Positions 16,494-43,060 of a stretch of 64,000 bases of DNA are shown one piece after another (position 1 is the stretch's first letter; every line of letters begins with the position of its first letter). The translations under genes were made by a program, and so were the position numbers. Source of the stretch: Acidobacteriota bacterium (GTDB taxonomy: Bacteria > Acidobacteriota > Thermoanaerobaculia > Gp7-AA8); contig JAJPHC010000051.1 in assembly GCA_021325515.1 (NCBI GenBank), forward strand, positions 27,998 to 91,997, read 5' to 3'. The notes beneath the pieces are model-generated. The model ran no database searches. It was not told the origin of the DNA and saw only the letters and a list, made by a program, of their open reading frames with translations.

Positions 16494-17158
16494 GGGGTGC
16501 CGAGGGCGAACTCGGCGCGGCAGCCTTCGGTGACCCAGATGCCTCGGCTGTCAAAGCCCCACGTGCGGTTCATGATGCACGAGTCTTTGCTCAACTGGCG
16601 CGATACCTGGACGCCGAAACGCGTGTCGGCCTTACACCGGTGCCGCACGTTGTTGATCGACTCACAGACGACCGTGCCGTGATAGTTCGACGCGCTCGTC
16701 ATCGGACGCGCGCCGGTGATGAACTCCGCGCGGCAGCCGTTGTCGACCCACACTCCGCGGCTGTCATAGCCCCACGACTTTCCTTCCACGCAACTGCTCT
16801 TGCTCAACTGCCTGCTGATCTGCACGCCATAGCGGGTATCGGCATCGCAGTGATGCCGTTTGCCGCCCGACTCACAAACGACTGCACTCGTCATCGGCGC
16901 GGAGGATGCGTTGTAAGGCGAGACGAGAAAATCAGCGCGGCACCCGTTGTCGACCCAGATCGTGTTGCCGCTGGAGCCCCACGTCTTTCCCTGCACGCAG
17001 GCGCTCTTGCTGAGCTGGCGCAACAGCGTCACCGTGCCTGTTCCTGTAAACCCGCAGCGTTCGATTCTGCCGCCCGACTCGCAGCGGACGCTAACGTCCT
17101 CCGCGAACAGCGGCGCAGCACACAGCGCGACCGCCACAACCAGACAGAGCTTTTTCAT
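16490..17158 (-). CDS. secreted DUF3011-repeat protein (three Cys-containing repeats)
   Basis: Start MKKLCLVVAVALCAAPLFA (rc ATG at 17156-17158, GGAGG 5 nt upstream). Three repeats of CESGG..RH.C.....V..RQLSK..C..GKSWG....GVWVDNGCRAEF. The N-terminal 537-aa extension in the ORF track is an artefact. Confidence 0.65.
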   Translation of the reverse strand: MKKLCLVVAVALCAAPLFAEDVSVRCESGGRIERCGFTGTGTVTLLRQLSKSACVQGKTWGSSGNTIWVDNGCRADFLVSPYNASSAPMTSAVVCESGGKRHHCDADTRYGVQISRQLSKSSCVEGKSWGYDSRGVWVDNGCRAEFITGARPMTSASNYHGTVVCESINNVRHRCKADTRFGVQVSRQLSKDSCIMNRTWGFDSRGIWVTEGCRAEFALGTP

Positions 17159-17233
17159 TTGCAACCTCCGCCACACTGCGATGCTCAGAACTTGCCACAT
17201 CGCAGCGGGGGTCGAAGCTTTATCATCGCCACG

Positions 17234-19513
17234 ATGGACGAGCGCATCGGCCCCTACCGCATTCTCCGAAAGCTCGGCGAAGGCGGAATGGGCGTGGTCT
17301 ACGCGGCCGAGGACGAGAGGCTGCGCAGAACGGTCGCGATCAAGACGATTCGGGAAGCAGGCGATTCGACGGCGCGCGAGCGATTTTTTCGCGAGGCGCG
17401 CGCCGCCGCGAGCCTCACCCATCCGAACGTCTGCCAGATCTTCGATATCGGCGACGAAGCAGGCCGCCCTTTTCTCGTGATGGAGCTGCTCGACGGCGAG
17501 CCGCTCTCCTCCCGCATCAGCAGAGGCGCGCTTCCCCTCGGCGACTCCGTGCAGATCACGCTCGCGATTCTCACCGCTCTCGACGCGCTGCATGCGCGAG
17601 GCTTCATCCATCGCGATCTGAAACCGTCGAACGTCTTCCTCACCCCGGGCGGAGTGAAACTGCTCGACTTCGGCCTCGCGCGCGAGATGCATCCCGCGAC
17701 TCTCTCCGCGAACGACACGACGCTGCGTCCCGGCGAAGAGACTCCGCCGCTGACCCTGTCGGGGATGATCGTCGGCACGCCGCGCTACATGGCCCCCGAG
17801 CAACTGCTCAACACGCCGGTCGACGCGCGCACCGACCTCTTCGCCGCCGGCGCGCTGCTGTTCGAGATGCTCAGCGGCCACGCCGCATTCAACGAAGAAA
17901 ACACCATGCGGCTCTTTCACGCGATCTGCTACGAGGCGGCGCCGACGCTCGCCGGCTCGGCCGCGATCTCCGCCGTGAATCGCATCGTGCATCGCGCGCT
18001 GGCCAAGCGCAGCGACGAGCGCTATCAGTCGGCGCACGCCATGGCCAGCGATCTCCGCGAAGTGATGATGATCTCCGACGCCGCATCGCCGGTCGTCGCG
18101 CATCGCGTCACGCGCCTCATCGTCCTGCCGCTGCGCATGCTGCGCCCCGACCCGGAGATCGACTTTCTCGCGCAGGCGATCCCCGAGGGGGTGACGACGT
18201 CGCTGGCGGGAATCGGAACGCTGATCGTCCGTTCACCGATGACGGCATCGAAGATCGACACGAGCGACCTGAAGGCGCTGGCGACGCAGGCCGATGTCGA
18301 CGTCGCGCTCACCGGCACGCTGCTGCGCGCCAGTGAACAGATCCGGATGACGTCGCAGCTTCTCGAAGTTCCGGGCGGTACGGTGCTCTGGTCGCAGACG
18401 TCGCAGGCCACGATGTCGGACATCTTCGCGCTGCAGGACACGCTGACGCAGCGCATCGTCTCCTCGCTCGAGTTGCCGCTCACCGAGCGCGAGGCGCGGC
18501 TCGTGCGCGGCGATGTTCCAGCCAACTCGCGCGCGCACGAGTTCTATCTGCGCGCCGGGCAGCAGGGCGAATCGCCGGAGGGGTGGGCCATCGCGCGCGA
18601 TCTCTATCGCCGCGCGCTCGACGAAGATCCCCGCTACGCACTCGCCTGGGCGCGCGTCGCCCGCATTCATCTGCTGCTCGGAAAATACGCCGGCGACACG
18701 GCGAAGGAATACGAGCTCGCGGAATCGTCGGCGCGCCATGCGCTGGAGCTCAGTCCCGATCTGCCGCTCGGTCATCTCGCCGCGGCGATGATCGAGGTCT
18801 GCACCGGCCGCGCGCGCCAGGCGACGATGCGCCTGCTCGATCGCGTGCAGCGCGGCACGAATGATCCCGCCGTCTTCTCCGGCCTCGTGATGTCGCTCCG
18901 CTACTGCGGTCTGCTCGAGACGTCGATCACCGCCTACGAGCAGGCACACGAGCTCGACCCGAACATCTCGACCAGCGTGTCGCATTCGTACTGGATGGCG
19001 GGCCGCTACGAGGAAGCGTTGAAGACAGTTGATCGCGATCGCGACTTCGGCGCGGATGAAGCGCTCGTCCTCGATTCGATGGGACGCTATGAGGAGGCGC
19101 TGGCGATGTTCGCCGAGCGCAGAGAGCGGCTCGTGCGAAACGGCGCGCTGCCGACAAGTGCCGCGTTTCAGGTGCTGCAGGGCTTCGAGAGGTTTCTGCG
19201 CGGTGACCGGCGCGCGCTGGAGAGCCTCAGCACGTTCCGCAATTTCCCCGACCCCGAAGGGCGGTACTACATCGCCCGCGGCATGGTGCGAATTCAGGAG
19301 CTCGACATGGCGATCGAGATGCTCGAGGAAGCGGAGCGCGACGGCTTCTTCTGCTATCCGGTCTTCGCGCACGACCCCTGGCTCGATCCGCTGCGGCCCA
19401 ATCCCAGATTCATCGCGATGCTCAAGCGCGCCGAGGAGAAGATGCGTGAGGCGCAGCGCGCCTTCGATGCACATCCCGGAAGCAGAGTGCTCGTCGTAGG
19501 AGGAAGAAGTTGA
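17234..19513 (+). CDS. eukaryotic-like Ser/Thr protein kinase with C-terminal TPR-like domain
   Basis: ATG at 17234. GEGGMGVVY (G-loop), AIK (VAIK-like Lys), HRDLKPSN (catalytic loop), DFG, APE; C-terminal alpha-helical TPR-like region. The ORF-track start at 16640 is an upstream artefact. Confidence 0.8.
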   Translation: MDERIGPYRILRKLGEGGMGVVYAAEDERLRRTVAIKTIREAGDSTARERFFREARAAASLTHPNVCQIFDIGDEAGRPFLVMELLDGEPLSSRISRGALPLGDSVQITLAILTALDALHARGFIHRDLKPSNVFLTPGGVKLLDFGLAREMHPATLSANDTTLRPGEETPPLTLSGMIVGTPRYMAPEQLLNTPVDARTDLFAAGALLFEMLSGHAAFNEENTMRLFHAICYEAAPTLAGSAAISAVNRIVHRALAKRSDERYQSAHAMASDLREVMMISDAASPVVAHRVTRLIVLPLRMLRPDPEIDFLAQAIPEGVTTSLAGIGTLIVRSPMTASKIDTSDLKALATQADVDVALTGTLLRASEQIRMTSQLLEVPGGTVLWSQTSQATMSDIFALQDTLTQRIVSSLELPLTEREARLVRGDVPANSRAHEFYLRAGQQGESPEGWAIARDLYRRALDEDPRYALAWARVARIHLLLGKYAGDTAKEYELAESSARHALELSPDLPLGHLAAAMIEVCTGRARQATMRLLDRVQRGTNDPAVFSGLVMSLRYCGLLETSITAYEQAHELDPNISTSVSHSYWMAGRYEEALKTVDRDRDFGADEALVLDSMGRYEEALAMFAERRERLVRNGALPTSAAFQVLQGFERFLRGDRRALESLSTFRNFPDPEGRYYIARGMVRIQELDMAIEMLEEAERDGFFCYPVFAHDPWLDPLRPNPRFIAMLKRAEEKMREAQRAFDAHPGSRVLVVGGRS

Positions 19514-20226
19514 TCGAACGAAGTAAAGAACATGGAATCGTGACGCTGCGCCTCGCCCACGGCAAGGCGAGCGCGATGGACGTCGAATTGCTGGAGGCGA
19601 TGAATCGCGAGCTCGATGCCGCCGCCGTGAACGCGAAAGCGGTCATTCTCACGGGAACGGGATCGATTTTCTCCGCGGGCGTCGACCTCTTCCGACTCAC
19701 CAGCGAAGGAGTGCCGTACGTCGAACGATTCTTCCCTCTGCTCAGCGAGATGATCAGGAAGATCTATGAGCTGCCCGTGCCGGTGGTCGCCGCAGCGAAC
19801 GGCCACGCGATCGCCGGCGGGTGCATCCTCGTGTTAGCCTCCGACTATCGCCTGATGGCCGCGGGGAACGGGCGGATCGGAGTGGCGGAGCTGCTGGTCG
19901 GCGTGCCCTTCCCAGAATCGGCGCTGCGCGTCGTGCAGTTCGCCGTGCCGAATGCGCCGCGCTACGTGCTCACCGGAAAGACGCTGCTGCCTCAGGAGGC
20001 GCTGGCCGCCGGCATGATCGACGAGGTCGTCGAGCCTAACCAGTTGATGCAGCGGGCCGCGGAGATGGCCACGCAGCTCGGTGCGATTCCACGCGAGTCC
20101 TTCCGCTTGACCAAGCGCCAGCTTCGCGGCCTCGGAGCCGACGACAAGGCCGCGCTCGCGGTCTGGAGCGAGCCCGCGATCCACGATGGCATCCGGGCCT
20201 ACCTCGCAAAGACCGTGAAGAAATAG
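19510..20226 (+). CDS. enoyl-CoA hydratase/isomerase (crotonase) family protein
   Basis: 238 aa. VILTGTGSIFSAGVDL and AAANGHAIAGGCIL match the crotonase oxyanion-hole motifs. Confidence 0.8.
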   Translation: MIERSKEHGIVTLRLAHGKASAMDVELLEAMNRELDAAAVNAKAVILTGTGSIFSAGVDLFRLTSEGVPYVERFFPLLSEMIRKIYELPVPVVAAANGHAIAGGCILVLASDYRLMAAGNGRIGVAELLVGVPFPESALRVVQFAVPNAPRYVLTGKTLLPQEALAAGMIDEVVEPNQLMQRAAEMATQLGAIPRESFRLTKRQLRGLGADDKAALAVWSEPAIHDGIRAYLAKTVKK

Positions 20227-20232
20227 ACGTCC

Positions 20233-20259
20233 CCCTCGCCCCGCTCCGCGGGGAGAGGG
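20233..20259 (+). terminator. GC-rich stem-loop (CCCTCGCCCCGC-tcc-GCGGGGAGAGGG)
   Basis: 12-bp stem with one mismatch immediately after the stop at 20226. Related hairpins at 45913-45940 and about 25838-25866. Confidence 0.4.
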
Positions 20260-20278
20260 GCCATGGGCAAGGGACAAC

Positions 20279-21250
20279 ATGAAAGCGCTACTCGCAAAAA
20301 AACAGGACAAGGGCTACAAGGTCTCCCTCGAGGAGACCGAGCCGCAGTCAGGCGAAGTCCTCGTGGACATCGCCTACTCCTCCCTCAACTACAAGGACGC
20401 TCTCGCCGTCACCGCGAAAGGGAGGATCATCCGCACGTTCCCGATGGTGATCGGGATCGATCTCGCCGGCACGGTGATCGAGTCGAGCAGCGACGAATTC
20501 AGGAAGGGCGACAAGGTCATCGGCCTGGCGCAGGGACTTGGCGAGACGGAGTGGGGCGGCTACGCGCAGCAGCAGCGCGTGCTGGCGAAGACGCTCGTGC
20601 CGCTGCCTGCGTCGTTGAGTCTGGAGGATGCGATGCGAATCGGCACCGCGGGCTTCACCGCGATGCTGAGCGTGATGGCGCTCGATGCGTACGGCCTCGA
20701 GCCTTCGGAACGGGAGGTCGTCGTCACCGGCGCGGCGGGCGGCGTCGGCTCGCTCGCCGTGATGCTGCTCGCACGCCGCGGCCATCGCGTGGCGGCATCG
20801 ACCGGTCGCCCGGAGCTCGAGGAGTACTTCCGCAATCTCGGCGCTTCCTCGATCCTTCCCCGTGCGGAGCTGGCGCGCAAGCCTTCGCCTCTCGAGTCCG
20901 AGCGCTTCCTCGGCGGCATCGACACGGTCGGCGGCGACACGCTCGCAACGCTCTTCGCGCAGACGGTCTACGAAGGTGCGATCGCCTGCTGCGGAATGGC
21001 AGGCGGCCACGAGCTGAACACGACTGTGTGGCCTCTCATCCTCCGCAACGTCGCCCTCCTCGGCATCAGCTCGATCCACACGTCGAAGGAGAAGCGAAAG
21101 GAAGCATGGTCACGCCTCGCGGCGGAAGTGCCGCGCGACCGTCTGGAAGCGATCAGCAGAACCGAGCCGCTCTCCAACATCGTCGCGCTGAGCGAAGAAC
21201 TGCTGGCGGGAAAAGTCCTCGGCAGAATCGTGATCGACGTGAACCGCTAG
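20279..21250 (+). CDS. YhdH/AcuI-type MDR-family NADPH:quinone / acrylyl-CoA reductase
   Basis: 323 aa; MKALL..K.......L.E.E.P; YSSLNYKDALA; GAAGGVGS nucleotide fold. Typical YhdH subfamily. Confidence 0.8.
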   Translation: MKALLAKKQDKGYKVSLEETEPQSGEVLVDIAYSSLNYKDALAVTAKGRIIRTFPMVIGIDLAGTVIESSSDEFRKGDKVIGLAQGLGETEWGGYAQQQRVLAKTLVPLPASLSLEDAMRIGTAGFTAMLSVMALDAYGLEPSEREVVVTGAAGGVGSLAVMLLARRGHRVAASTGRPELEEYFRNLGASSILPRAELARKPSPLESERFLGGIDTVGGDTLATLFAQTVYEGAIACCGMAGGHELNTTVWPLILRNVALLGISSIHTSKEKRKEAWSRLAAEVPRDRLEAISRTEPLSNIVALSEELLAGKVLGRIVIDVNR

Positions 21251-21925
21251 CTACGGCCCGACTGCGGTAATCGCTTCTTCCAGAAACTTCCGCACGCTGC
21301 CGCGGGAAGAGACGAGCAGCACGGCGCCGAACCATCCCTGCGTGTTCCAGAATCCCGACGACAGCGACTTCGCGATCGTCGGCCCTTCTGCGAACACGGG
21401 GGGCGTCACATACCAGTAAGGCTCGGGATACTGCGCATCACCGGCGAGAAAACCGACGCCTGTCGTCAGCCCATCGCCGTTGTCGATGCGCACCGCGATG
21501 TCGAAATGATGCGGCCAGCAGCGCGGCTTGCCGAACCGCTGCAGCTCCTGGTTAGCCGCGTGATAGAGGTCGGAGATCTCCTGCTGATCGCCGAAGTCGG
21601 GCGCGAACGGCTCGCCATGCGCCACCGGATGATCCGGCAGGGAGCCCTCCGCGGGGCGCTCCAGTTTCTGTCCGACCTTCGACTCGAAGAAGTGAAACGC
21701 ATCCTCGAGGCTCCGTCCGGCCAGAGGAAACTCATCGTCGCCGTACAGCAGCGTCAGATCGTGAAAGCGGATGCCCGCGCGGTCGTCGCCCTGAATCAGA
21801 GCCGTGCGCTCCGGCGACCAGTAGAAACTCGTGTGCGAGTCGTCGGCCTGCTTCGGCAGAGTCGTGCGGCCGACGCCGGCGGCAGCCTGCGCCGCCCAGT
21901 GCAGTTGAAGTCGTGTATCGATCAT
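21251..21925 (-). CDS. hypothetical protein
   Basis: Start taken at the internal ATG (MIDTRLQLHWAAQ...), 225 aa; coding-like codon bias; no recognised motif. The upstream extension is probably artefact. Confidence 0.4.
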   Translation of the reverse strand: MIDTRLQLHWAAQAAAGVGRTTLPKQADDSHTSFYWSPERTALIQGDDRAGIRFHDLTLLYGDDEFPLAGRSLEDAFHFFESKVGQKLERPAEGSLPDHPVAHGEPFAPDFGDQQEISDLYHAANQELQRFGKPRCWPHHFDIAVRIDNGDGLTTGVGFLAGDAQYPEPYWYVTPPVFAEGPTIAKSLSSGFWNTQGWFGAVLLVSSRGSVRKFLEEAITAVGP

Positions 21926-22029
21926 GATGCTGTGCTGCCAAATATACGCGCGATTCGACAACGCTGCGGCAACATTGCAGAATGCATCAACACCGACAAC
22001 TCGACGGAATGGAATGGAGGTTCTGGCCA

Positions 22030-22526
22030 TGACGACGACACGTGTCTGTTTCGCGATCCTCACCGCCTTCGCCCTCGCCTCTCCGATCGCCTTTGGGCAA
22101 CCCTCTCCCGAACAGAAGAAGCTCGAGTCGATGACCGGCAAGTGGCAGACCGAGATTGAATTCAAGGGCACGACGCCGGGCAAGGCATCCGGCACCGAAG
22201 AGTGCGAGTGGTTCGCCAATCTTCACATCGTCTGCCACGCCGATCTCACCGGCGCCGCAGGCCTCTATCGCGCGATGCGCACCGTGAGCTGGGTGCCGGC
22301 GATGAAGCAGTACGCCGTCTATACGATCGACAGCATCGGCTATGCAGCGCTGACGATGGGAACCAGCAGCGGCAACACGTGGACGTTTACTTCCGCGGGG
22401 CCGGGTTGGAAGACACGCCTGACCATGAAGATCTCCGCGAACGAGATCACATCCACTTCCGAGTACGCCGGCGCGGACGGCAAGTGGATCACGACCGCGA
22501 GCTCGAGGTCGAAACGGTTGAAGTAG
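22030..22526 (+). CDS. DUF1579 family secreted protein
   Basis: GGAGG 9 nt before ATG 22030; signal peptide MTTTRVCFAILTAFALASPIAFG; ...MTGKWQTEIEFKG... is a DUF1579-like lipocalin-type pattern. Confidence 0.55.
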
Positions 22527-22584
22527 TAGAGGGGCGTTGGGGGCCTGCGTTAAATCCGGCGAGAGCCATCGCTACCGCGAGCTG

Positions 22585-23630
22585 TCACCGTCCCCAGATC
22601 TGCGCGAGGCGCGCGTCGCGGCCGCAACCGTGCCGGTAGTACTTGTACCGGATCGGATTCTTGATGTGGTACTGCTGGTGGTACTCCTCGGCCGGATAGA
22701 AGCGGCTGGCGGCGATGATGTCGGTCACCACGCGCTGCTTCGGAAAGCGCTTCTGCACCGCATCGCGCGATGCGATCGCCGCGCGATGCTGCTCCTCGCC
22801 GTGATAGTAGATCGCGCCCTTGTACTGCTCTCCCTTGTCGCAAAACTGTCCGTACTGATCGAACGGGTCGACGTTGTGCCAGAAGATGTCGAGCAGCTTC
22901 TCGTACGACACCTTCGCCGGATCGAACGTCACCTGCACCGCCTCGCGATGTCCTGTGCCGCCCGACGAGACCTGTTCGTACGACGGATCGTTCACATTGC
23001 CGCCCGTGTAGCCGGAAAGCACACCGATCACTCCCGGCACCGAATCGAACGCCGCCTCCGAGCACCAGAAGCAGCCGGCGGCGAACGTCGCTACCGCGCG
23101 TGGCGGAGGAGCCGCGTGCAGCGGGAGAGAAACGAAGAGAATCGCCAGCATTGCTGCAGCGGCGAGTTGGGGTGCCACCGCCGGTTTGAACTTCTTCCGG
23201 AGCAGCGCATCCAGCGAGAAGAGACCGGGGCCGAACGCCAGGACGATCAGCGCCACCATGAGATAGGGGAACGCCGCATCTCCCGTGAAGCCGTCGATCG
23301 ATCCCCAGTCCTTCTTATCGCCGCTGACGATCGCCACGAACATGTTCACCGCCAGCGGGATGGAGATCAGACGCGAGGCGAGCCCGATGAACAGCAGCAC
23401 GCCGCTGACCAGTTCCAATCCGCCGACGAAGCGCGCCGTCAATTCCGGCATCGGGATCTGGCGCGTCGCGAAGAACTTCGCCACGTTGTCCAGGTTGTGC
23501 AGCTTGCCCCAACCGTTCGTTGCCAGCTCGTATCCGAACAACAGCCGGATCACGAGGAGCAGCGGGTCGCGGAGACGATCGAGCACCTTCGTCGTCCCCC
23601 AGTCATAGAGAGCCTGTAGTCGCGTCACTC
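22585..23630 (-). CDS. msrA: DoxX-family membrane domain fused to peptide methionine sulfoxide reductase MsrA
   Basis: GTG start (rc of 23628-23630) 7 nt after GGAGG, overlapping the upstream gene stop. N-terminal about 150 aa is DoxX-like with four TM segments (..LLFGYELATNGWGKL..), followed by an extra hydrophobic segment. The MsrA domain has AGCFWCSEAAF.. active site and no intervening stop. Confidence 0.75.
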
Positions 23631-24323
23631 GATTCCTCCGAAGATCCCCGCCGCGCTCCAGTCGCGGAACCAGGCGAACAACTCTTCCTGAGTGGCGCCG
23701 GTGGACTCGATCGCTTCGACCAGCGTCGCTCCATCGCAAAGCGCGGAGAGGAATTCGTAAGCCCTCTCATCCAGCGTGAAGCGATAGACCGAGTAATCGC
23801 GGCGATGGAACACGACGAACGTCTTCTTCGGCTCCGGCTCGACCAGCTCTTCCTCATCGCGAAACTTCTGAAAGAAATCGGCGACCGGGTAGTCGAACGC
23901 CATCAGGCGAAACGCCGCGATCATCTTCAGACGCGAATCAGGACCGACGGCGGCGATCGCCTCGGGGCCCAGCGCAGGTGTCTCTTCTTCGTCGAACACC
24001 TGCGTCATCGCGAGCTCGAAGCGGGCAAGGTCGGAGAGGAACGGATCGTCCTTCAGAAACTCAGAAAACGAGTCGCCGAGCCGGTTCAGCGTGTAGCTCC
24101 GCGACGGATGGACTTCGGAATAGCGAGTGACGAGATCGTGGAACTTCTCTTCCCCGAGGAATTGCGCGATCGCCGGATAATCGACGGCCATCGCGTCGTA
24201 CATGCGGATCGGATACATGTCGCGATAGATCGCGATCCGCTCCGGATCGACGAGCCGCGACGTATCTTCCGGCCAGTGCGGCGACGTGATGGCGTCGTAC
24301 ATCCACTCCTGAAACTCACGCAC
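23625..24323 (-). CDS. DUF2063 domain protein (MNIO partner protein, MbnC/BufC-like)
   Basis: DUF2063 blocks ..[28 protein letters not shown]...[14 protein letters not shown]. Start is either GTG 24321-24323 (overlaps the DUF692 stop by 8 nt) or ATG 24300-24302. Confidence 0.75.
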
Positions 24324-25140
24324 AGACGGCCTCCAGATATCCGGCGGCCTTTTTCGCCTCGGCGTGCACGGTCTCGAAGTCGGGGATCTCCTGATCCCAC
24401 TCGACCATCGTCGACACATCGCCGAATCGCCGGCACGTGTAGTCGTACAGCGACCACACCTCGTCGATGACGTGCCCCATGTGCGTGTCGATGATGTGCG
24501 TGTCGTACTTCGTGTGGCCGGCGAGATGGATCTGCACCACGCGGCCCTTCGGGATGTTGTCGATGTACGTCTTCGGATCGAAGCCGTGGTTGAAGGCGCT
24601 GACGTAAACGTTGTTGACGTCGAGGAGCAGGTAGCAGTCCGAGCGCTCGGTGAGCTGCGCGAGAAAGTCCCACTCCGTCATCGTCGACTCTTTGAACGCC
24701 ACATAGGTCGACGGGTTCTCGAGCACGAGCGGCCGCTCCAGGAAGTCGCTGACGACACGCACGCGCTCGGCGATGTGCTCGAGTGCGCGCTCGTGTGTCG
24801 GCACCGGGAGAAGATCGTGCGTGTTCTTTCCCATCACCCCTGTCCAGCAGAGATGGTCCGAGACCCAGCGTGCATTCACGCGCTTCGCGAGCTTCTTCAA
24901 CTTGCGGAGGTAGTTCATGTCGAGCGGATCGGTTCCGCCGATGGACATCGAGACGCCGTGCAGGACGACCGGATAGCGCTCGGCAATCTTGTCGAGCACG
25001 TACGCCGGACGGCCGCCGCTGTCCATGTGATTTTCAGAGAGCGCTTCGAACCAGTCGATCTCCGGCTCCTGTCCGAGGATGTGGGAGAAGTGGACGGTGC
25101 GAAGGCCGATGCCGATGCCTAGATAGGGGAACTCGGTCAT
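24316..25140 (-). CDS. DUF692 / UPF0276 family protein (MNIO, multinuclear non-heme iron oxidase, MbnB-like)
   Basis: ATG (rc 25138-25140). [45 protein letters not shown] and HLAGH are the hallmark DUF692 TIM-barrel blocks. Confidence 0.85.
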
Positions 25141-25205
25141 TTGCGTAGTTGGATGCCGAATGCTGGCTGCCGGTTTCCGGCAGCCAGCAACAGGCGCATG
25201 ACTGA

Positions 25206-25583
25206 TTACGAAGCCTTCGGAGGAACGGCGCAGCCGCCCTTGCCCTTGCACTCGTTCTTGCCATCCGGGCCCTGGCCCTTGCAGGCGTTCTTACCCTTGC
25301 AGTCGTGCTTGACGTCGGACGAGGCGCAGCCGCCCTTGCCCTTGCAGGAGTTCTTGCCGGCGCAGCCCTTGTCGCCGCTCTTGCAGTTGCCTTTGCCCTT
25401 ACAACCGTTCATGCCTTTACAGGCATGCTTGTCGGCCGCCTTGTCAGCCTTCTTGCTGTCGGCCACCTGGACCTTGCCATTGTCGCTGAGCGAGAACGTA
25501 TTGGCGCGGGCCTGGGTACCAACGGTCAAACCTGCAACGACACCACCGAGAACGAGAACCTTTGCGAGATCACGTGAATTCAT
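25206..25583 (-). CDS. secreted Cys/Lys/Gly-rich small protein, candidate RiPP precursor (bufferin-like)
   Basis: AGGAGGG 6 nt before the ATG. Sec signal [27 protein letters not shown]. Mature part has 10 Cys in spaced C-x5-7-C pairs ([36 protein letters not shown]) in a K/G-rich background. First gene of the MNIO operon. Confidence 0.65.
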
Positions 25584-25760
25584 GGGAGTAACTCCCTCCT
25601 TTCAATCGACAAACTACGTGTGGAACTTCACGTCGGACTCATGCACTTCTCACTTTTCTGTCACGCGGGCGGGGGTCGTGAAGCAGACACAGTGGATGCC
25701 TCCTCTTGCCGTGGGACCGAGCTCCGATTGTTGATGGAGACGGAATGTTACGCCGCTAGC

Positions 25761-25780
25761 CGTCACATCGCAATGTGACG
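25761..25780. promoter_or_regulatory. perfect palindrome CGTCACAT-cgca-ATGTGACG upstream of the MNIO operon (candidate operator)
   Basis: 8-bp arms with 4-nt spacer, about 180 bp upstream of the precursor start codon, in the 300-bp intergenic region. Confidence 0.3.
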
Positions 25781-25790
25781 TTGACCCACC

Positions 25791-25847
25791 AACGTCCTCC
25801 CTCGCCCCCCAACGTCCTCCCTCGCCCCCCATCGTCTCCCTCGCCGC
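25791..25847. repeat. imperfect 20-bp tandem direct repeat x about 2.8 (AACGTCCTCCCTCGCCCCCC)
   Basis: aacgtcctccctcgcccccc / aacgtcctccctcgcccccc / atcgtctccctcgccgc. It sits between the histidine-kinase stop and the MNIO operon promoter region. Confidence 0.6.
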
Positions 25848-25886
25848 AAAGCGGGGATAGGGGCCAGGGGTGAGGGGCAAACCGTC

Positions 25887-27278
25887 CTACACGGCGAAGC
25901 TGAACGTCGTTCCGGCGTTCTTCCTGCTCTGCGCGACCAGCGACGCTCCGTGCAACTCCAGAATCCTCTTCGCGATCGCCAGTCCGAGGCCGGCGCCGCC
26001 GCGCGGCGTCGACTCCTCCCCCTGCCAGAATCGGTCGAAGATATAAGGCAGGCTCTCCTCGGAAATGCCGCACCCGGTGTCGGTGACCCGCACCGATAGT
26101 TTCTCCTGCTGTGGCATCAGCGACACCGTGACGCTTCCCCCTTCGGGGGTATAGCGGATCGCGTTCTCGATCAGATTCTCGAGCACGCGCTCCATCAGTG
26201 CGATGTCGCCTTTCACCAGCGGCAACGCCGGCTCGAGCTGCGCCGTCACAGACACCCTCGCCTGTTCCGCGCGCAACTGAAACTTCTGCACGACGTCCTG
26301 CACCAGCTCGGCCATCGAGAACGGCTCGATCTGGAGCGGCGTCATCTTCGAATCGAGCTTCGCCAGTTCGAACAGCTCATCGACGAGTTTTCCGAGCCGC
26401 TCGCTGTGCTTGCTCGCGATCTCGAGGAAGCGCCGCTGCTCGTCGGGAGTGAGCTGCCCCTCCTTTAATAACAGGGTCTGGATGTAGCCCTGCAGCGACG
26501 CGAGCGGCGTGCGGAGATCGTGCGATACGTTCGCGACGAGCTCGCGCCTGTGCAGATCGACTTCCTTGAGCATCTGCACCTGCCGCTCGAATGCGTGCGC
26601 GAGGCGATCGACTTCATCGCCCGAGCCATTCACCGGAAGCCGCACCTCCCCGCTCGACTCCACGGCACTCGCGAGATTGCGCAGCCTTCGCGTCATCGCG
26701 CCGAAGAGCACGAGCCCCGCGGCGAGCGCAAAGAGCAGCGCGGCGATCGCGAGCATCACGCTCTGCTGAAGAATCCAGCTATTGCGGATGTGCGCCATCG
26801 CCGAGTCCTGCTGCTCGCCGCCGAGGATGACGTAGAGGTAGCCGTCGTCGACCTGCGCCACGGAAAAGATCTTTCGCCGCGAAAGATCGCGCGGATCGTC
26901 TCCGTGAATCGGCAGACGATCGCCGCGCATGAACGCTTCGATCGGCACCAGCGAAACGCTCTTGCGCTTCACTTTTCCCGGAGGCGCGGAAAACGCCCGG
27001 ATGGCTCCCCTCGCATCGAGCAGATAGATCTCGATCGACGGATTGACGGCCATCAGCGCGTCGAAGACGTTATCGAGCATCTTCCAGTCGATCGTGCCGT
27101 CGTGAATGACAGGCTTCTGCCGCACGATCGTCGCAGCAAGCCCGCGATTCAACCGCTGCGTTGCCTCTTCGTCATACAAGCGCGACGTATGAATCGTCAG
27201 CGCGACATCGACCGCTGCCGCGATCAGAAAGAGTCCGAGGAGGACGACGGCGAGCTTGGCGTAGAGAGACTTCTTCAT
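25887..27278 (-). CDS. sensor histidine kinase (TM-HAMP-HisKA-HATPase)
   Basis: Start MKKSLYAKLAVVLLGLFLI (rc ATG 27276-27278). H-box VSHDLRTPL; N-box NLIENAIRYT; G-boxes DTGCGI and GGAGLGLAIA. Confidence 0.8.
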   Translation of the reverse strand: MKKSLYAKLAVVLLGLFLIAAAVDVALTIHTSRLYDEEATQRLNRGLAATIVRQKPVIHDGTIDWKMLDNVFDALMAVNPSIEIYLLDARGAIRAFSAPPGKVKRKSVSLVPIEAFMRGDRLPIHGDDPRDLSRRKIFSVAQVDDGYLYVILGGEQQDSAMAHIRNSWILQQSVMLAIAALLFALAAGLVLFGAMTRRLRNLASAVESSGEVRLPVNGSGDEVDRLAHAFERQVQMLKEVDLHRRELVANVSHDLRTPLASLQGYIQTLLLKEGQLTPDEQRRFLEIASKHSERLGKLVDELFELAKLDSKMTPLQIEPFSMAELVQDVVQKFQLRAEQARVSVTAQLEPALPLVKGDIALMERVLENLIENAIRYTPEGGSVTVSLMPQQEKLSVRVTDTGCGISEESLPYIFDRFWQGEESTPRGGAGLGLAIAKRILELHGASLVAQSRKNAGTTFSFAV

Positions 27279-27293
27279 AGGGAAAAGAAGCGA

Positions 27294-27363
27294 AACGCAG
27301 AACGCAGAACGCAGAATGAAGAATTGAGAAGAGCGCATCGCTTGAAGTCGGTTTTCATTCTGC
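27294..27363. repeat. degenerate tandem heptamers (ACGCAGA)x3-(ATGAAGA)... plus 11-bp inverted repeat CGCAGAATGAA / TTCATTCTGCG
   Basis: Fills the short intergenic gap between the response-regulator stop (27355-27357, inside the inverted repeat) and the kinase start. Same heptad flavour as the hairpins at 1678 and 57017. Confidence 0.6.
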
Positions 27364-28071
27364 GGCCATTGCCTCTGTGAACTTGTAGCCCACTCCCCAC
27401 ACGGTGAGGATCCACTTCGGATCGGACTGATCTTCTTCGATCTTCGAGCGCAGCCGGTTGATGTGCGAGTTCACGGTGTGCTCGTAGCCGTCGTGGCCAT
27501 AGCCCCAGACGGAATCGAGGAGTTGCGCACGCGTGTAGACGCGGCCGGGATTGCGCGCGAACTGCAGCAGGAGATCGAACTCCTTCGCCGTGAGCTCCAC
27601 TTCCTCGCCGCGCAGCGTCACCTTCCTCTTCTCGACTTCGATGAGGAGATCGCCATATTGCAGCCGCGACGCCGGCGCTTCTTCCTCCGGCTTCGCACTC
27701 AAGGCATCGACGCGCCGCAGGAGCGCCTTCACGCGCGCGATCAGTTCGCGGATGTTGAAGGGCTTCGTCAGATAGTCATCGGCCCCTAGCTCGAGACCGA
27801 CGATGCGATCGACATCCGCCGAGCGCGCGGTGAGCATGAGGATCGGCGTGTAATTCGTCCGCGCGCGGAGCCTGCGGCAGATCTCGAGCCCATCGATGCC
27901 CGGCAGCATCAGATCGAGAATGATGAGATCGAACGGCTTCTTCGCCGCCAGCTCCAGCGCCACGTTGCCATGGTGTGCGAGCGTCACCTCGGCACCGAGA
28001 TCCTTGAGATGCATCTCGACGAGCTGGGCAATATCACGGTCATCTTCGACTACAAGGATGCGGCGAGCCAT
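27355..28071 (-). CDS. OmpR-family response regulator (REC + winged-helix)
   Basis: MARRILVVEDDRDIAQLV.. receiver domain, D54 context ILDLMLPGIDG, C-terminal winged helix LTAKEFDLLLQFARNPGRVYTR. Confidence 0.85.
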   Translation of the reverse strand: MARRILVVEDDRDIAQLVEMHLKDLGAEVTLAHHGNVALELAAKKPFDLIILDLMLPGIDGLEICRRLRARTNYTPILMLTARSADVDRIVGLELGADDYLTKPFNIRELIARVKALLRRVDALSAKPEEEAPASRLQYGDLLIEVEKRKVTLRGEEVELTAKEFDLLLQFARNPGRVYTRAQLLDSVWGYGHDGYEHTVNSHINRLRSKIEEDQSDPKWILTVWGVGYKFTEAMAAE

Positions 28072-35989: not shown

Positions 35990-36454
35990 ATGGAAGCCTT
36001 CGATCGCTCGATGAATCGCCGCACACTGCTCAACTGGTTTCTCGGCACGTCGTTCGGCGCGCTGATCGCGTCGGTGATCTACCCCGTGCTGCGGTACATG
36101 ACTCCACCGAAGATCGCCGAGGCGAGCACGAATCAGGTCGAAGCCGGCGAAGTGAATGATCCCGCGCTGCTCGACAAGGGCTACAAGATCATCCGCTTCG
36201 GCGCGGAGCCGGTGATTCTCGTCAAGGCCGCGGAAAACGATTTCCGCGCTTTCTCCGCGACGTGCACGCATCTCGACTGCATCGTCGGCTTCCAGAAGGA
36301 CCAGACGCGCATCTACTGCAACTGCCACGGCGGCTGCTACGACCTCACAGGCCGCAATGTCTCCGGTCCGCCGCCGCGGCCTCTCACTCCCTACAAAGTC
36401 AATGTCGTCTCGAAGGGCTCGGGTCCGGGCCTGATCGTCGTATCGAAGGCGTAA
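35990..36454 (+). CDS. Rieske [2Fe-2S] iron-sulfur protein (bc/b6f-type)
   Basis: GAGG 8 nt before the ATG; twin-arginine-like [13 protein letters not shown]; cluster boxes CTHLDC...CNCHGGCY. The track start at 35975 is a GTG overlapping the upstream stop. Confidence 0.85.
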
Positions 36455-36456
36455 TC

Positions 36457-39231
36457 ATGAGCGCAATCTTTGAGTGGCTCGATGACCGGCTCGGCGTCTC
36501 CGTCCTGCGCGAGGTCGCATCACACAAGACCGTACCCTCGCATCGCTACACCATCCTCTACTACCTCGGCGGCATGACGCTCTTCTTCTTCCTCGTCCAG
36601 GTCTGCACCGGCGTTCTGCTGATGCTCTATTACAGACCGTCGGCCGAAGAAGCCTTCGAGTCGGTGGAGTTCATCATGACCACAGTGCCGTTCGGATGGC
36701 TCATCCGCAGCGTGCACTCCTGGTCTGCCAATCTCATGGTGTTCTTCGCCTTCCTCCATCTCGTGAGCGTCTTCTTCATGAAGGCGTACCGGCCGCCGCG
36801 CGAAGTCACCTGGATCAGCGGCGTCATCGTGCTCTTCCTCGTCATGGGCTTCGGCTTCTCCGGCTATCTGCTGCCGTGGAATCAGCTCGCGTTCTTCGCG
36901 ACGAAAGTCGGCACGGACATCGCCGGCGTCGTCCCGCTCGTCGGCCCATGGATGGTGCGCTTCCTCCGCGGTGGTGATCGGGTGAGCGGCGCGACTCTTT
37001 CGCGCTTCTACGGCTGGCACGTCGCGATCCTTCCCGCGATCACGACCGTCATCCTCGGATTGCATCTCGCGATGGTGCAGCTCAAAGGGATGAGCGTGCC
37101 GAAGTCGATCGAGGACGATGCGAATTCGCGCAAGCCGATGAAGTTCTTCCCCCACTTCGCACTGCGCGATCTCACCGGATGGATCATCGCCCTCGGCTTC
37201 GTCGCCGCACTCGCCGCCCTCTTCCCCTGGGAGCTCGGCGACAAGGCTGATCTCTTCGCGCCCGCCTACGAGAACATCCGCCCCGAGTGGTACTTCGTCT
37301 TCATGTTCCAGACGCTGAAGCTCGTGCCCGGCGGCTCCATCGCCGGCATCGAGTACGAGGCGATTCCGATCATGCTGTTCAGCCTCGCCGGCGCTCTGCT
37401 GATGGCTGTCCCCTTCCTCGACCGCAGACTCAAGCGCGATGGAAAGAGCCCGCTCTTCACCACGATCGGCGTGCTCGCCATCCTCTTCATCGTCGGCATG
37501 ACGTGCTGGGGCTACGGCAACATCGTGCCGCTGCTGGTCATGGCGCTCGCCGCATCGCTGCTCGTCCTGCTCGGATGGATCACGAGGCCTCCGCGCGCGA
37601 TGATGATGATCGCGCTGCTGTTCCTCGCCGCACACGCCTGGGGCGCGACGCCGAAGACGTCGTGCACCACCTGCCACAACAGCGAACTATTCGATGCCGC
37701 CGGCAAAGCGAAGGTGACTTCGTTCCTCACGAAGGACGTGCATGCGCAGATCGGCCTCTCCTGTCACGATTGTCACGGCGGCAATCCCGATCCTGCACTG
37801 AGCACCGATCCGGCTGCCGCCATGGATCCCAATTACAAGAAGAACCCGTTCCGCGGAATGCCGGCGCGCAAGGACATTCCCGACTTCTGCGGCCGCTGCC
37901 ACTCCAGCGCGGCCTTCATGAAGCAGTACAACCCGGCCGCGCGCGTCGATCAGGTCAGTGAGTACTGGACGAGCCGCCACGGCCAGCTTCTCAAGCAGGG
38001 CGATACGAATGTCGCGGTCTGCATCGACTGCCATTCCGTGCACGACATCCGCCGCAGGATCTCACCCGACTCGCCCGTCTACAAGACGAAGGTTGCGGAG
38101 ACCTGCAGCCGCTGCCACTCCGACGCGAACAGGATGGCGAAGTACGGCATCCCCACCGATCAGTACGCGCGCTGGCGCGTGAGTGTGCACGCCAATGCGG
38201 TGCTCAACAAGGGCGACATCGCAGCGCCTAGCTGCAACGACTGTCACGGCAATCATGGAGCGACACCTCCCGGCGTCGAGTCGATCAGCTTCGTCTGCGG
38301 ACGCTGTCACGCGCGCGAAGCGGAACTGTTCCGCAAGAGCCCGAAGTACGACGCCTGGCAGAAGCACAACGAGATGATGAACGGGATGGCGTGCTCCACG
38401 TGTCATGCCGACGGCAAGCGCGCCAGCGTCACCGTGACGCACTTCAGCGAATGCCTCACCTGCCACGAGAATCACGGCGTCGTCCGTCCGACGATCGCCC
38501 TGCTCGGCAATCTGCCGGAAACACCCTGCGCGTTCTGTCATGAAGGCGTCGGCCCGCTCGCCGCACGCATCGCGGAGATGCCGGAAAAGGCCGAGCACTT
38601 CAAACAAGTGCGCGACAGCTTCCTCAAGGTTGCCGATGCCCAGCATCTGAAAGGCAATGACCGTTTCGACTGGCTGGTTGACCAGGCGCTGCACCTCCCC
38701 TTCCATCGCGTCGGCGACGCGAAGCAGAACGACAAACTGCGTCCCGAGTTCCTACGGCTCTTCGACAAGTTCCGCATCGGCAAGACGCACTACGTCTACA
38801 AGGATGTGAAAGGGAACGACGTCTCGGTACCGGTCCGCAGTTGTGGCGACTGTCATGAAGAAAAGGATTCCGCCGGCCTGGCGAATGCGCGCGCGTATCT
38901 CGATGCCACGCGCAGCGTGACCAGCATGGTCGGACGCGCCGATCGCATCCTGCTCTCCGCGCATCGCGGCGGTGTCGAAGTGCGCAAGGTACGCGCCGAG
39001 CTCGATGGAGCCATCGACTCCCAGATCGAGCTCGAGACGCTGGTGCACACGTTCAACGCGCCTGAGGTGCAGGCCAAACAGAAAGAAGGACTGCAGCACG
39101 CCGAGGCGGCGCTGGTCGCCGGACAATCGGCGCTCGACGAGTTGCTGTATCGCCGCAAAGGATTGTTGATCGCGCTCGGAATCATCCTTCTGGTTCTCGT
39201 CGCGCTGATCACGAAGATCAGGACGTTGTAG
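36457..39231 (+). CDS. cytochrome b (b6 plus subunit-IV-like, 8+ TM) fused to a C-terminal multiheme (11 x CxxCH) cytochrome c domain
   Basis: The N-terminal about 420 aa has the cytochrome b His ligands and the PEWY motif ([14 protein letters not shown]). The C-terminal about 500 aa carries CTTCH, CHDCH, CGRCH, CIDCH, CSRCH, CNDCH, CGRCH, CSTCH, CLTCH, CAFCH and CGDCH, plus a final TM anchor. The track start at 36262 is artefact; the ATG at 36457 follows the Rieske stop. Confidence 0.85.
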
Positions 39232-40848: not shown

Positions 40849-40898
40849 CTCCAGACTGTGACCGCTGAAATGGGATTTGAACTCGAAGGAGACAAGCA

Positions 40899-43049
40899 AT
40901 GACACGACTTCACCGCGGCCTGATCCTCATCGCGCTTATGGCCGTCATCTCGCTGCCGATGTTCGCGGCGACGCGCGGACGCGCCGCCGGTTCGCCTGCG
41001 AATCCGGCCACGCCAACGGCAGCGGCATTCCCGCCGACTGCGAAAGAGGCATACCTCACCGATGACACGCTCGCGTATATCCGTCCCGGCCTCAAGGTGA
41101 AGCTCAACTCCGTCGCGGTCGGCACGGACGGCAAGGTCAACGTCGATCTCTCGATCACCGACGACTTCGATCAGCCGATCGATCGCCTCGGGAAAACGAC
41201 GCCGGGCGCAGTCTCCATCAGCTACATCCTCGCCTGGTACAGCCCCACGACCCGCCAGTACACCGCGTACACCACGCGTGTACAAACGACTCCCGCCACG
41301 AGTCCGCATCCCGGCGTCAGCGCAACTCAGGCAGGAACCGATTCCGGCGGCACCACCACCGATCTCGAAACCGGCCATGTGAAGTACCTCTTCAAGACGG
41401 TGCTTCCCACCGGCTTCGACGGCACCAGGACGCACACACTCGGCATCTATGCCTCGCGCAACATGACCGATACGATCGGCAAGATCTATTACGCGAACGT
41501 CGAGTACGACTTCCGTCCCGATGGCAACAAGGTCACGGACGTATGGGACAAGGTCAATCTCGCCACGAGCTGCAACAACTGCCACGATCCCCTTTCCGCA
41601 CATGGCGGTGCGCGCCGCGATCCGAAACTGTGCGCGCTCTGCCACTCTCCGCAGACCATCGATCCCGACACCGGCAACACGGTCGATTTCAAGGTGATGA
41701 TCCACAAGATCCATCAGGGCGCGACTCTGCCGAGCGTGAAGGCCGGAACGCCGTATCAGATCATCGGCTTCGGCCAGAACGTCCTGGACTTCTCCAAGGT
41801 CGCGCTTCCGCCGGGACAGGACACTCGCAATTGCGCCTTCTGCCATGTCGGCAGCGATCCGACGAAGAAGCCCGCACAGAACGACGTCTGGCTGACCAAG
41901 CCGTCGCGCGATGCATGCGGTTCCTGCCACGACGACATCGACTGGGCCACAGGCAAGAATCACGTCGGCGGCCTTCAGAAGGATGACAGCGCGTGCGCCA
42001 GTTGCCACGTTCCGGACAGCGGGAAGGAATTCGACGCGTCCATCAAGGGCGGCCACGTTCTTCCGGTTGCCTCCAAGCAGCTCAAGGGCATCACCGCCAC
42101 GATCACCAAGGTCGTGAATGCGGCACCCGGCAAGAAACCGACGGTGACCATCGCCGTCAAGAACGGCGACGGCACGCCGGTCGACGGCAGCAAGCTGACG
42201 ACCTTCGCGCCGATCATGGCCGGCCCAACCACGAGCTACACCAAGTACTTCCGCGAGAGCGGCATCGCATCCGCCACGAACACGAACGTCGCGACCTACG
42301 ACGCGGCCACCGGCCTCACCTCGTTCACGTTCGCCAACGCGATCCCCGCCGATCAGACCGGCACATGGGCCTTCACTGCAGACATCTATCGCAACGTCAC
42401 ACTGAAGCAGAACAATGACAAGGCCGATCTGACGCAGCGCGAAGCGGCGTTCAACAACATCGTCTACATCCCGATCACCGGCACGACGGCGACGCCGCGC
42501 CGCACCTCGGTCATCCTGTCCCAGTGCAACAGCTGCCACAATGCGCTCGCACTGCACGGCGGCCAGCGCCAGAACACGCAGGAATGCGCCATCTGCCACA
42601 ACCCCACGAACAATGACGTTGCACAGCGCCCGGCGAGCGAAGGGCAGCCGGAGTCGATCTCCTTCCAGCGTCTCATCCATCGCATCCACAAGGGCGGAGA
42701 GTTGACGCAGGACTTCACCGTCTACGGCAATAACAAGTCCCGCCACAACTACAACGACGTGGAGTATCCGGGAGACATCAACCATTGCGCGAAGTGCCAC
42801 ACGTCGACCTCGTACCAGCTGCCGCTGGCGACGGGCATCGACTCCGTGACGACACTCCGCGATTACTATTCGCCGCAAGGCCCCGCGACCGCTGCGTGCC
42901 TTGGCTGCCACGACAATCGTGACGCCGCGGCGCACGCGTTCCTCAATACGGCAACGTTCCCCGGCCAGCCCACTACCCCGGCCGAAGCGTGCGCAACGTG
43001 CCACGGTGCTGGTAAGGACTGGGCGGTCGACAAGGTGCACGCCCAGTAA
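40899..43049 (+). CDS. MtrC/OmcA-like outer-surface decaheme c-type cytochrome (10 x CxxCH, beta-rich inserts)
   Basis: GGAG before the ATG; signal peptide; CNNCH, CALCH, CAFCH, CGSCH, CASCH, CNSCH, CAICH, CAKCH, CLGCH, CATCH in 716 aa. Thr/Gly-rich beta-type segments lie between the haem clusters. The antisense ORF 40845-43229 is artefact. Confidence 0.7.
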   Translation: MTRLHRGLILIALMAVISLPMFAATRGRAAGSPANPATPTAAAFPPTAKEAYLTDDTLAYIRPGLKVKLNSVAVGTDGKVNVDLSITDDFDQPIDRLGKTTPGAVSISYILAWYSPTTRQYTAYTTRVQTTPATSPHPGVSATQAGTDSGGTTTDLETGHVKYLFKTVLPTGFDGTRTHTLGIYASRNMTDTIGKIYYANVEYDFRPDGNKVTDVWDKVNLATSCNNCHDPLSAHGGARRDPKLCALCHSPQTIDPDTGNTVDFKVMIHKIHQGATLPSVKAGTPYQIIGFGQNVLDFSKVALPPGQDTRNCAFCHVGSDPTKKPAQNDVWLTKPSRDACGSCHDDIDWATGKNHVGGLQKDDSACASCHVPDSGKEFDASIKGGHVLPVASKQLKGITATITKVVNAAPGKKPTVTIAVKNGDGTPVDGSKLTTFAPIMAGPTTSYTKYFRESGIASATNTNVATYDAATGLTSFTFANAIPADQTGTWAFTADIYRNVTLKQNNDKADLTQREAAFNNIVYIPITGTTATPRRTSVILSQCNSCHNALALHGGQRQNTQECAICHNPTNNDVAQRPASEGQPESISFQRLIHRIHKGGELTQDFTVYGNNKSRHNYNDVEYPGDINHCAKCHTSTSYQLPLATGIDSVTTLRDYYSPQGPATAACLGCHDNRDAAAHAFLNTATFPGQPTTPAEACATCHGAGKDWAVDKVHAQ

Positions 43050-43060
43050 GGGAGGCGGCG

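Follow-up and report, generated by a model that had tools for sequence, protein, structure and literature searches.

The best described relatives of the locus reported here are the bufABCD operons of Caulobacter vibrioides (PMC11626156, PMC12452194), in which a Sec-exported, cysteine-rich precursor, the MNIO enzyme BufB, a DUF2063/RRE partner and a DoxX protein are encoded in that order, with translational coupling. We analysed a window of 64,000 nucleotides from an Acidobacteriota bacterium (Thermoanaerobaculia, Gp7-AA8; assembly GCA_021325515.1, contig JAJPHC010000051.1, positions 27,998 to 91,997) that holds an operon of the same order, whose last gene joins a DoxX membrane module in one reading frame to a methionine sulfoxide reductase A (MsrA). 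We suggest that in this operon an exported thiol-type MsrA has probably been captured by, and is co-produced with, a metal/oxidative-stress bufferin system, where it would repair methionine-S-sulfoxide in the cell envelope. Compared with bufABCD, the DoxX gene of the window has a C-terminal secreted MsrA, and the precursor has 10 cysteines, not 4, 6 or 12. Its regulation appears to run through a two-component system, in place of the sigma/anti-sigma pair of Buf1 clusters.

Periplasmic repair of methionine sulfoxide with a membrane partner is known from MsrPQ (Escherichia coli YedYZ), which is induced by copper or chlorine stress via two-component systems and, in its copper-induced role, repairs the Met-rich copper chaperone CusF (PMC9302797). 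Neither the molybdopterin (oxidored_molybd) domain nor the haem-b ferric-reductase domain of MsrPQ, however, was detected in the fusion or the other genes of the operon; the chemistry of the fusion is thiol-based, and we disfavour a flow of electrons from its membrane partner. Exported or anchored thiol-type reductases that protect the envelope include Neisseria PilB (thioredoxin-MsrAB, with DsbD), Haemophilus influenzae MsrAB (thioredoxin, CcdA) and Streptococcus pneumoniae TM-MsrAB2 (Etrx, CcdA) (PMC7907618, PMC13488963). Unlike these, the fusion has no MsrB, no thioredoxin domain and no linked ccdA or dsbD, and its anchor, if kept, would be a DoxX protein in place of a lipid or single helix. 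A DoxX protein also meets antioxidant enzymes at the membrane in the Mycobacterium tuberculosis DoxX–SseA–SodA complex, although, as that complex is cited in PMC7907618, it is non-covalent, involves other partners and genomic contexts, and contains a DoxX that is only a distant relative.

A link between bufferin operons and methionine sulfoxide repair recurs at the level of regulation and gene content. Periplasmic msrAB is under the same ECF sigma factor as a DoxX–MNIO–DUF2063 cluster in H. influenzae (RpoE2) and in Neisseria (SigE) (PMC7907618), the Caulobacter sigma-F regulon comprises two buf operons and yedY/msrP (PMC3511200), and genes with MsrPQ-like domains (oxidored_molybd and ferric reductase) occur in some oxazolin clusters (PMC12452194). 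The published co-regulation in Neisseria, Haemophilus and Caulobacter fits a co-expression reading of the acidobacterial gene, in which the recurrent link takes its tightest form. It is a new arrangement of known parts: our literature search found no paper on a DoxX–MsrA fusion or on MsrA in MNIO clusters, and the MNIO landscape paper with its three supplementary files (PMC12452194) mentions neither MsrA nor PMSR.

The fusion gene and its relatives

Coordinates are those of the window unless another locus is named. The gene and its parts are these:

22585–23628, minus strand: DoxX–MsrA fusion gene, a continuous open reading frame (ORF) with Pfam DoxX and PMSR domains and 40 full-length homologue clusters
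23185–23628, minus strand: DoxX (BufD/HvfX-like) domain, residues 1–148, four predicted transmembrane helices, no cysteine (Pfam PF07681, AlphaFold2 model, loop charges)
23110–23199, minus strand: internal signal-peptide-like segment, residues 144–173, with n-region RKKFK, h-region LAAAAMLAILFVSL and c-region PLHA↓A
22588–23103, minus strand: MsrA domain of a secreted four-cysteine subfamily, residues 176–347 (PMSR, TIGR00401; C186/C189, C263, C335)

The preliminary description read this gene as a single ORF that joins a four-helix DoxX module, through an extra hydrophobic segment, to a complete MsrA, and the ORF, the Pfam matches and the homologues bear this out. The product has 347 aa and no internal stop, and is encoded on the minus strand, which the preliminary description left unstated, from a GTG start (23628–23626, not 23630 as first given) to a TGA stop (22585–22587). 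Pfam DoxX (PF07681) matches residues 23–102 (E=1e-16, 61.7 bits, cut-off 23.6) and PMSR (PF01625) residues 180–329 (E=7e-58, 195.6 bits, cut-off 23.7; profile positions 2–152 of 153), while the NCBIfam msrA profile TIGR00401 scores 180.2 bits against a cut-off of 108.1. The only cysteines of the protein are C186 and C189 in GCFWC (residues 185–189, at 23062–23076), C263 in QFCD and C335 in CGRD. As had been described, the GTG overlaps the stop of the upstream DUF2063/HvfC gene (TGA, 23627–23625), sharing the letters GTGA with it, and a GGAGG motif lies 6 nt 5' of the start; the overlap supports the tight co-expression that had been proposed, and the two genes are translationally coupled. A scan for promoters and terminators returned sites no more frequent than in shuffled sequence.

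A word-indexed search for the same fusion in related genomes found 40 clusters of full-length proteins with both Pfam domains (51–100% identity, 338–357 aa). One of them, P0001, is an identical protein in public data, and the other 39 are 51–76% identical; the clusters derive from JGI, ENA, NCBI and Logan assemblies, and the named ones belong to the Thermoanaerobaculia (Acidobacteriota). When the 40 proteins are aligned, frame and linker are kept and 89 columns are invariant, all four MsrA cysteines among them. No frameshift or stop, which the preliminary description had named as grounds for abandoning the idea, separates the two domains in these clusters, and the fusion stands. An exhaustive HMMER search of 1.84 billion cluster representatives (50% identity) gave one full-length match only, the other top hits being the MsrA half alone; a scan of a genome collection for further fusions gave MsrA-only loci among the matches listed, a result that has no bearing on the taxonomic range of the fusion. 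Judged from these alignments and searches, the fusion is both genuine and conserved, and restricted to one narrow acidobacterial family.

The MsrA half has E. coli MsrA (2iem) as its nearest PDB entry (E 1.5e-37), and its predicted local distance difference test score (pLDDT) exceeds 90 in the full-length AlphaFold2 model. A second cysteine at +3 is also present in Bacillus subtilis and Deinococcus MsrA (PMC8945050). The nearest stand-alone relatives of the MsrA half, 79 proteins of 190–243 aa, all have an N-terminal signal peptide and share GCFWC, QFCD and CGRD (the single exception, CGRE, keeps the cysteine). The half is 60–79% identical to this secreted subfamily and shares with it the four cysteines, the C-terminal CGRD…LW tail and the features of the signal peptide; the signal peptide is N-terminal in the subfamily, whereas in the fusion it is internal and follows four DoxX helices. 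Because all four subfamily cysteines are retained, the thiol mechanism of the MsrA half is apparently unchanged. Among the matches listed, the subfamily spans Proteobacteria, Nitrospirota, Binatia, Gemmatimonadota, Cyanobacteria and others; a literature search found no paper on it and no solved structure was found. ORF clustering within ±3 kb of 80 genome loci of stand-alone secreted MsrAs yielded no recurrent neighbours beyond shadow ORFs.

MsrA domains of the exported CFWC type were seen in two further membrane fusions. In P0382 (446 aa) a CcdA-type DsbD_TM domain with both CcdA cysteines precedes a CFWC MsrA that has neither of the other two cysteines, and in P0296 (454 aa) the non-redox membrane protein UppP/BacA is joined to a four-cysteine MsrA via a signal-peptide-like segment.

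A bufferin-type operon with a ten-cysteine precursor

Upstream of the fusion gene lie the following genes:

23625–24419, minus strand: DUF2063/HvfC-type partner (BufC-like) of a ribosomally synthesised and post-translationally modified peptide (RiPP); Pfam DUF2063 E=1e-18, 67.7 bits (cut-off 27.2); homologues 232–271 aa
24316–25251, minus strand: MNIO (BufB) maturase; NCBIfam MNIO_BufB NF050167, 368.9 bits (cut-off 310); Pfam MbnB_TglH_ChrH E=4e-109
25206–25583, minus strand: precursor peptide of 125 aa with Sec signal peptide, BufA2-like, 10 invariant cysteines in CKGxxxC-type repeats
25887–27338, minus strand: sensor histidine kinase 5' of the operon (HAMP, HisKA, HATPase_c), present in 8 of 8 contexts
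27355–28071, minus strand: OmpR/PhoB-type response regulator, with NCBIfam matches below cut-offs only

The order response regulator, histidine kinase, 10-Cys precursor (125–128 aa), MNIO, DUF2063/HvfC and DoxX–MsrA is found in all eight contexts, namely the window and seven related fused loci that represent five subclades with variable outer flanks; genes with Response_reg and Trans_reg_C domains lie upstream in all seven. With the MNIO gene above the BufB cut-off and the fusion as the last gene, the position at the end of an MNIO operon given in the preliminary description is confirmed. In the window and the seven loci the fusion gene directly follows the MNIO and DUF2063/HvfC genes, an HvfX-like position; the DoxX half scores 62.4 bits with the profile of HvfX family Cu-binding RiPP maturation proteins (NF050144; positions 4–86 of 165), under the cut-off of 80, and the DUF2063 product 60 bits with NCBIfam HvfC, under the cut-off of 142.

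The precursor has an N-terminal hydrophobic, signal-like sequence and scores 42.7 bits with NCBIfam BufA2, under the cut-off of 60. The eight orthologues have 125–128 aa, 10 cysteines each in a 6 + 4 arrangement, and a C-terminal VPP; the seven copies outside the window lie at L001 6030–6413, L003 5916–6302, L004 6087–6473, L085 3821–4204, L086 4911–5294, L087 4864–5250 and L088 5033–5419. This precursor matches neither the 6-Cys nor the 12-Cys Buf2 class of the literature. By gene order and profile matches the cluster appears to be bufferin-type with an unusual 10-Cys precursor.

Two of the annotated starts seem too early. The longest HvfC ORF overlaps the upstream gene by 104 bp (24316–24419), and in its homologues the overlap with the MNIO stop is of a few bases, which makes a start downstream of 24419 probable; the longest MNIO ORF overlaps its upstream gene by 46 bp (25206–25251), its homologues are shorter, and the ATG at 25140 (MTEFPYLG…) is the likely start.

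Outside the acidobacterial family, a stand-alone secreted msrA lies within a same-strand Buf1–MNIO–DUF2063–DoxX cluster at two of 80 loci, where well under one would be expected by chance (a rough estimate, not a computed one):

L082 6480–11120, plus strand: metagenome-assembled genome (MAG) of a Rhodocyclaceae bacterium; Buf1 (DUF2282), MNIO, DUF2063, DoxX and MsrA, with an exported MsrB before MsrA and a stop/start overlap
L057 2990–7567, plus strand: MAG of a Competibacteraceae bacterium; Buf1 (DUF2282), MNIO, DUF2063, DoxX and secreted MsrA

We regard this linkage of msrA with the bufferin operon as suggestive only.

Two separable halves

The preliminary description held that separate, unlinked orthologues of DoxX and MsrA would count against a functional unit, and such orthologues exist on both sides. 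The closest unfused DoxX proteins, P0134 and P0147, are encoded in the same type of operon (response regulator and histidine kinase, 127–128-aa precursor, MNIO, HvfC, DoxX) with no msrA nearby (L089, L090). Conversely, P0042, a secreted MsrA that stands alone and shares 78% identity with the MsrA half of the window, is encoded without DoxX in L091, a metagenome contig (1–9993) syntenic with 16640–28071 of the window (response regulator 85%, histidine kinase 77%, alcohol dehydrogenase 75%, enoyl-CoA hydratase 66% and protein kinase 64% identical). Precursor, MNIO, HvfC and DoxX are absent from L091, where their place is taken by a PilZ gene and two genes with CLIPPER domains; the two-component system and the genes downstream of MsrA are still there.

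The trees tell a similar story. In a neighbour-joining tree of DoxX halves the fused proteins form one clade in which nine unfused sequences are nested and outside which 109 fall; in the corresponding tree of MsrA halves, fused proteins are interleaved with 20 stand-alone sequences. On these trees, fusion and separation have occurred more than once, and the signal peptide that belongs to the MsrA part makes separation easy. AlphaFold modelling of the full-length protein (predicted template modelling score 0.54; pLDDT above 90 for MsrA, 60–80 for DoxX, below 50 for the linker) predicted no confident docking of DoxX with MsrA. Several results therefore say that the halves are probably not functionally dependent on each other.

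Topology and possible cleavage

The fifth hydrophobic segment of the protein, residues 155–168, lies between the DoxX helices and MsrA. Its h-region measures 10–16 aa in the 40 fused proteins, with a median of 14 against 15 for the N-terminal signal peptides of the 79 stand-alone relatives. A helix-breaking proline at −4/−5 and small residues at −3/−1 are conserved (LHA↓A, LGA, GAA↓A) and match the c-regions of those stand-alone relatives, the window reading …SLPLHA↓APPP, and pLDDT in the segment is 48–59 in the full-length model. We read it as what appears to be a relic Sec signal peptide that has become internal.

Across the 40 homologues, lysine plus arginine amount to 4.0 at the N-terminus and 3.6 in loop 4–5; loop 2–3 is also rich in these residues, and loops 1–2 and 3–4 are acidic. 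Because of this distribution we predict, with strong confidence, that both ends of DoxX are cytoplasmic and that the MsrA domain is exported to the periplasm. The question raised at the outset, on which side of the membrane MsrA lies, thus receives the same answer from the positive-inside rule and from the signal peptides on all close stand-alone relatives.

Whether MsrA is also tethered, as first proposed, is less certain: the extra hydrophobic segment is indeed present, but it looks like a cleavable signal peptide and not like a full-length anchor. From its features, cleavage by signal peptidase and tethering would be about equally likely. This leads to the most durable of the alternatives, to which we give somewhat less than an even chance: the fusion may be a polyprotein, a device for co-expression and co-insertion from which signal peptidase I releases a soluble periplasmic MsrA, the two products then acting independently. 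It is a variant of the explanation we prefer, and does not contradict it. An h-region of this length falls short of what a stable anchor needs and resembles the genuine signal peptides of the stand-alone relatives; the conserved proline and small residues, the low pLDDT of the segment and the occurrence of each half alone in close relatives all point the same way. Precedent exists in the cytochrome b/c1 polyprotein FbcH of Bradyrhizobium, in which an internal signal peptide is the site of processing. Against the polyprotein, several members have a proline at the would-be +1 position of the most obvious site, so that a less ideal site would be needed.

Proposed model

We propose that a BufD/HvfX-type DoxX gene captured a secreted msrA gene together with its signal peptide. 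In the resulting protein, the four DoxX helices would insert so that both ends face the cytoplasm, and the K/R-rich loop and the short hydrophobic stretch (residues 144–173) would act as an internal Sec-type signal that exports the four-cysteine MsrA to the periplasm, where MsrA would stay attached or, about equally likely, be released by signal peptidase I, with the cut after …PLHA172. There, C186 of the CFWC motif would attack and C189 resolve, with C263 and C335 probably serving as a structural or second resolving pair. The fusion would share its transcript with the 10-Cys bufferin-like metallophore and its maturases, probably under the control of the adjacent two-component system; it is through this co-transcription and adjacent control that repair of methionine-S-sulfoxide in envelope proteins would be switched on together with the metal/oxidative-stress response.

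Several observations weigh against this model. That the fusion persists in homologues as distant as 51% identity could point to more than co-expression, and N95 in helix 3 is the sole DoxX column that is invariant specifically in fused proteins. No thioredoxin-like or CcdA/DsbD gene was found in the operon, and a motif search found no ORF with WCxxC in the 64-kb window. The matches of the two-component system to heavy-metal sensor families lie under cut-off, and bufD (doxX) is dispensable for Buf1 modification and for copper tolerance in Caulobacter (PMC11626156).

As to the regulator, the histidine kinase matches the heavy-metal sensor kinase subfamily over its full length at 175 bits, under the cut-off of 292, and an assignment of the two-component system to a copper-sensing family was rejected, since all matches fall under curated cut-offs.

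The case has some wider interest. DoxX is a core gene of bufferin/MNIO clusters yet dispensable in the one system tested, and the fusion is a clue of the Rosetta-stone type to its role; together with the three independent regulons of Neisseria, Haemophilus and Caulobacter it would place DoxX–MNIO operons and periplasmic methionine sulfoxide repair in one envelope stress response. The fusion is also a convenient single polypeptide for questions of topology, cleavage and electron donor, and could settle whether DoxX is a redox partner or a scaffold. Should DoxX be merely co-expressed with MsrA, the arrangement would be lineage-specific and of modest importance.

Electron donor and remaining alternatives

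Characterised extracytoplasmic thiol-type reductases all draw on thioredoxin with DsbD or CcdA (PMC13488963). We consider it most likely that the exported MsrA is likewise re-reduced by a generic periplasmic route of CcdA/DsbD and a thioredoxin-fold protein, not by DoxX; this route is favoured because it serves all characterised members of that kind and fits the CcdA–MsrA fusion P0382.

The preliminary description favoured another donor, suggesting a quinol-driven enzyme functionally analogous to MsrPQ, and our analysis does not support it. Under this explanation DoxX would bind menaquinol or ubiquinol and pass electrons straight to the tethered MsrA, giving a thiol-type counterpart of MsrPQ that dispenses with cytoplasmic thioredoxin. 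We hold it to be improbable, and slightly more so its sharper form, in which the cysteine-free DoxX is itself the missing donor and presents (mena)quinol directly to CFWC as a quinol:peptide-methionine-sulfoxide oxidoreductase. Some points speak for a quinol donor: reduction of methionine sulfoxide by quinol is thermodynamically feasible overall, relatives of DoxX include the DoxD subunit of thiosulfate:quinone oxidoreductase (the DoxX half has a weak Pfam DoxD match of 23.2 bits), the electron-transfer domain CcdA precedes a CFWC MsrA in the parallel architecture of P0382, the operon has no other reductant gene, and the fusion is conserved across considerable divergence. If true, this explanation would provide a first defined biochemical role for the BufD/HvfX DoxX proteins encoded in thousands of MNIO operons, and would add a thioredoxin-independent drive for thiol-type Msr outside the cytoplasm.

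The DoxX half groups with Acidobacteriota DoxX proteins of 155–190 aa (42–57% identity), and modelled alone it forms four long helices with a pLDDT of 90, in agreement with hydropathy and the charge pattern. The 40 fused DoxX halves contain three cysteines in total, that of the window none, and none of their invariant columns is a haem-ligand residue, so that there is no known relay to a disulfide. No fused-specific residues were found in the DoxX periplasmic loops. MsrA meanwhile keeps the full cysteine set of its stand-alone relatives, of whose loci 78 of 80 have no DoxX nearby; MsrA occurs without DoxX in the syntenic relative and DoxX without MsrA in sister operons; the AlphaFold2 interface is not confident; and the same MsrA subfamily has been fused behind the non-redox UppP/BacA in P0296. 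A sequence-profile search of the PDB found no solved structure of a DoxX relative. The best fold match of the DoxX model is NACHO/TMEM35A (PDB 9h9e chain C, 13% identity), a eukaryotic endoplasmic reticulum assembly chaperone with no known redox role, and on this comparison of models the fold alone would not mark DoxX as an oxidoreductase.

In a separate observation on the family, a cysteine directly follows the invariant, membrane-embedded E72, at the position of L73 in the window, in 57 of 109 unfused DoxX relatives and in one of the 40 fused proteins; it is possible that this cysteine is a functional thiol in part of the DoxX family.

A still less probable alternative is that MsrA is dedicated to maintenance of the RiPP, repairing oxidised methionine of the bufferin or reducing an oxidised sulfur of the modified peptide. 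The precursor is indeed co-encoded in all eight contexts, and its core in the window contains one methionine. However, the cores of the eight orthologues have zero to three methionines at non-homologous positions, sister lineages have the same operon without MsrA, and MsrA is specific for methyl sulfoxides. A conserved precursor methionine was separately considered as MsrA substrate and rejected, as methionine is not conserved in the eight orthologous precursors.

Least credible of all is an artefact of sequencing or assembly, or a recent, unselected loss of a stop codon: one-off fusions of the same MsrA subfamily (with NUDIX, PqqD or UppP) do show that read-through fusions arise, but the identical public protein and the 39 further full-length clusters, from independent metagenomes and MAGs at 51–100% identity with frame and linker kept, and the same four-gene operon in eight different genomic neighbourhoods, refute the artefact.

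Other genes of the locus

One further conserved gene accompanies the MsrA gene in several relatives:

21251–21925, minus strand: conserved gene of uncharacterised type, weakly DUF5996-like (by tblastn 47–62% identical to the gene that comes after MsrA in L001, L088, L003 and L091)

Its copies (L003 9059–9796, L091 6738–7382, L001 10228–10902, L088 9208–10053) follow MsrA whether this is fused or free-standing, and the DUF5996 match itself was obtained with the L003 copy only (E=5e-6). In L003 the gene overlaps the fusion stop by 4 bp; in the window an opposite-strand DUF1579 gene lies between the two.

In the closest subclade a gene fusing Rieske and FMN_red (NADPH-dependent FMN reductase) domains begins 4 bp before the DoxX–MsrA stop (L001 9044–10231, L002 4094–5281), and a shorter FMN_red-like gene occupies the same place in L088 (8627–9208); there is none in the window. 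In some relatives the Rieske and FMN_red gene may serve the operon as a redox accessory. Between kinase and precursor, a Zeta-toxin/AAA_33 and PhdYeFM antitoxin pair lies on the opposite strand in L001 (4810–5810), L002 (1–860) and L088 (3772–4760).

Opposite the fusion gene itself, the window has a shadow ORF of 360 aa (22537–23619, plus strand), of a kind common in high-GC DNA and for which a family match is not expected. Farther away on the plus strand, three long ORFs with several CxxCH motifs (36160–39231, 40881–43049 and 43016–44026) probably encode multihaem c-type cytochromes.

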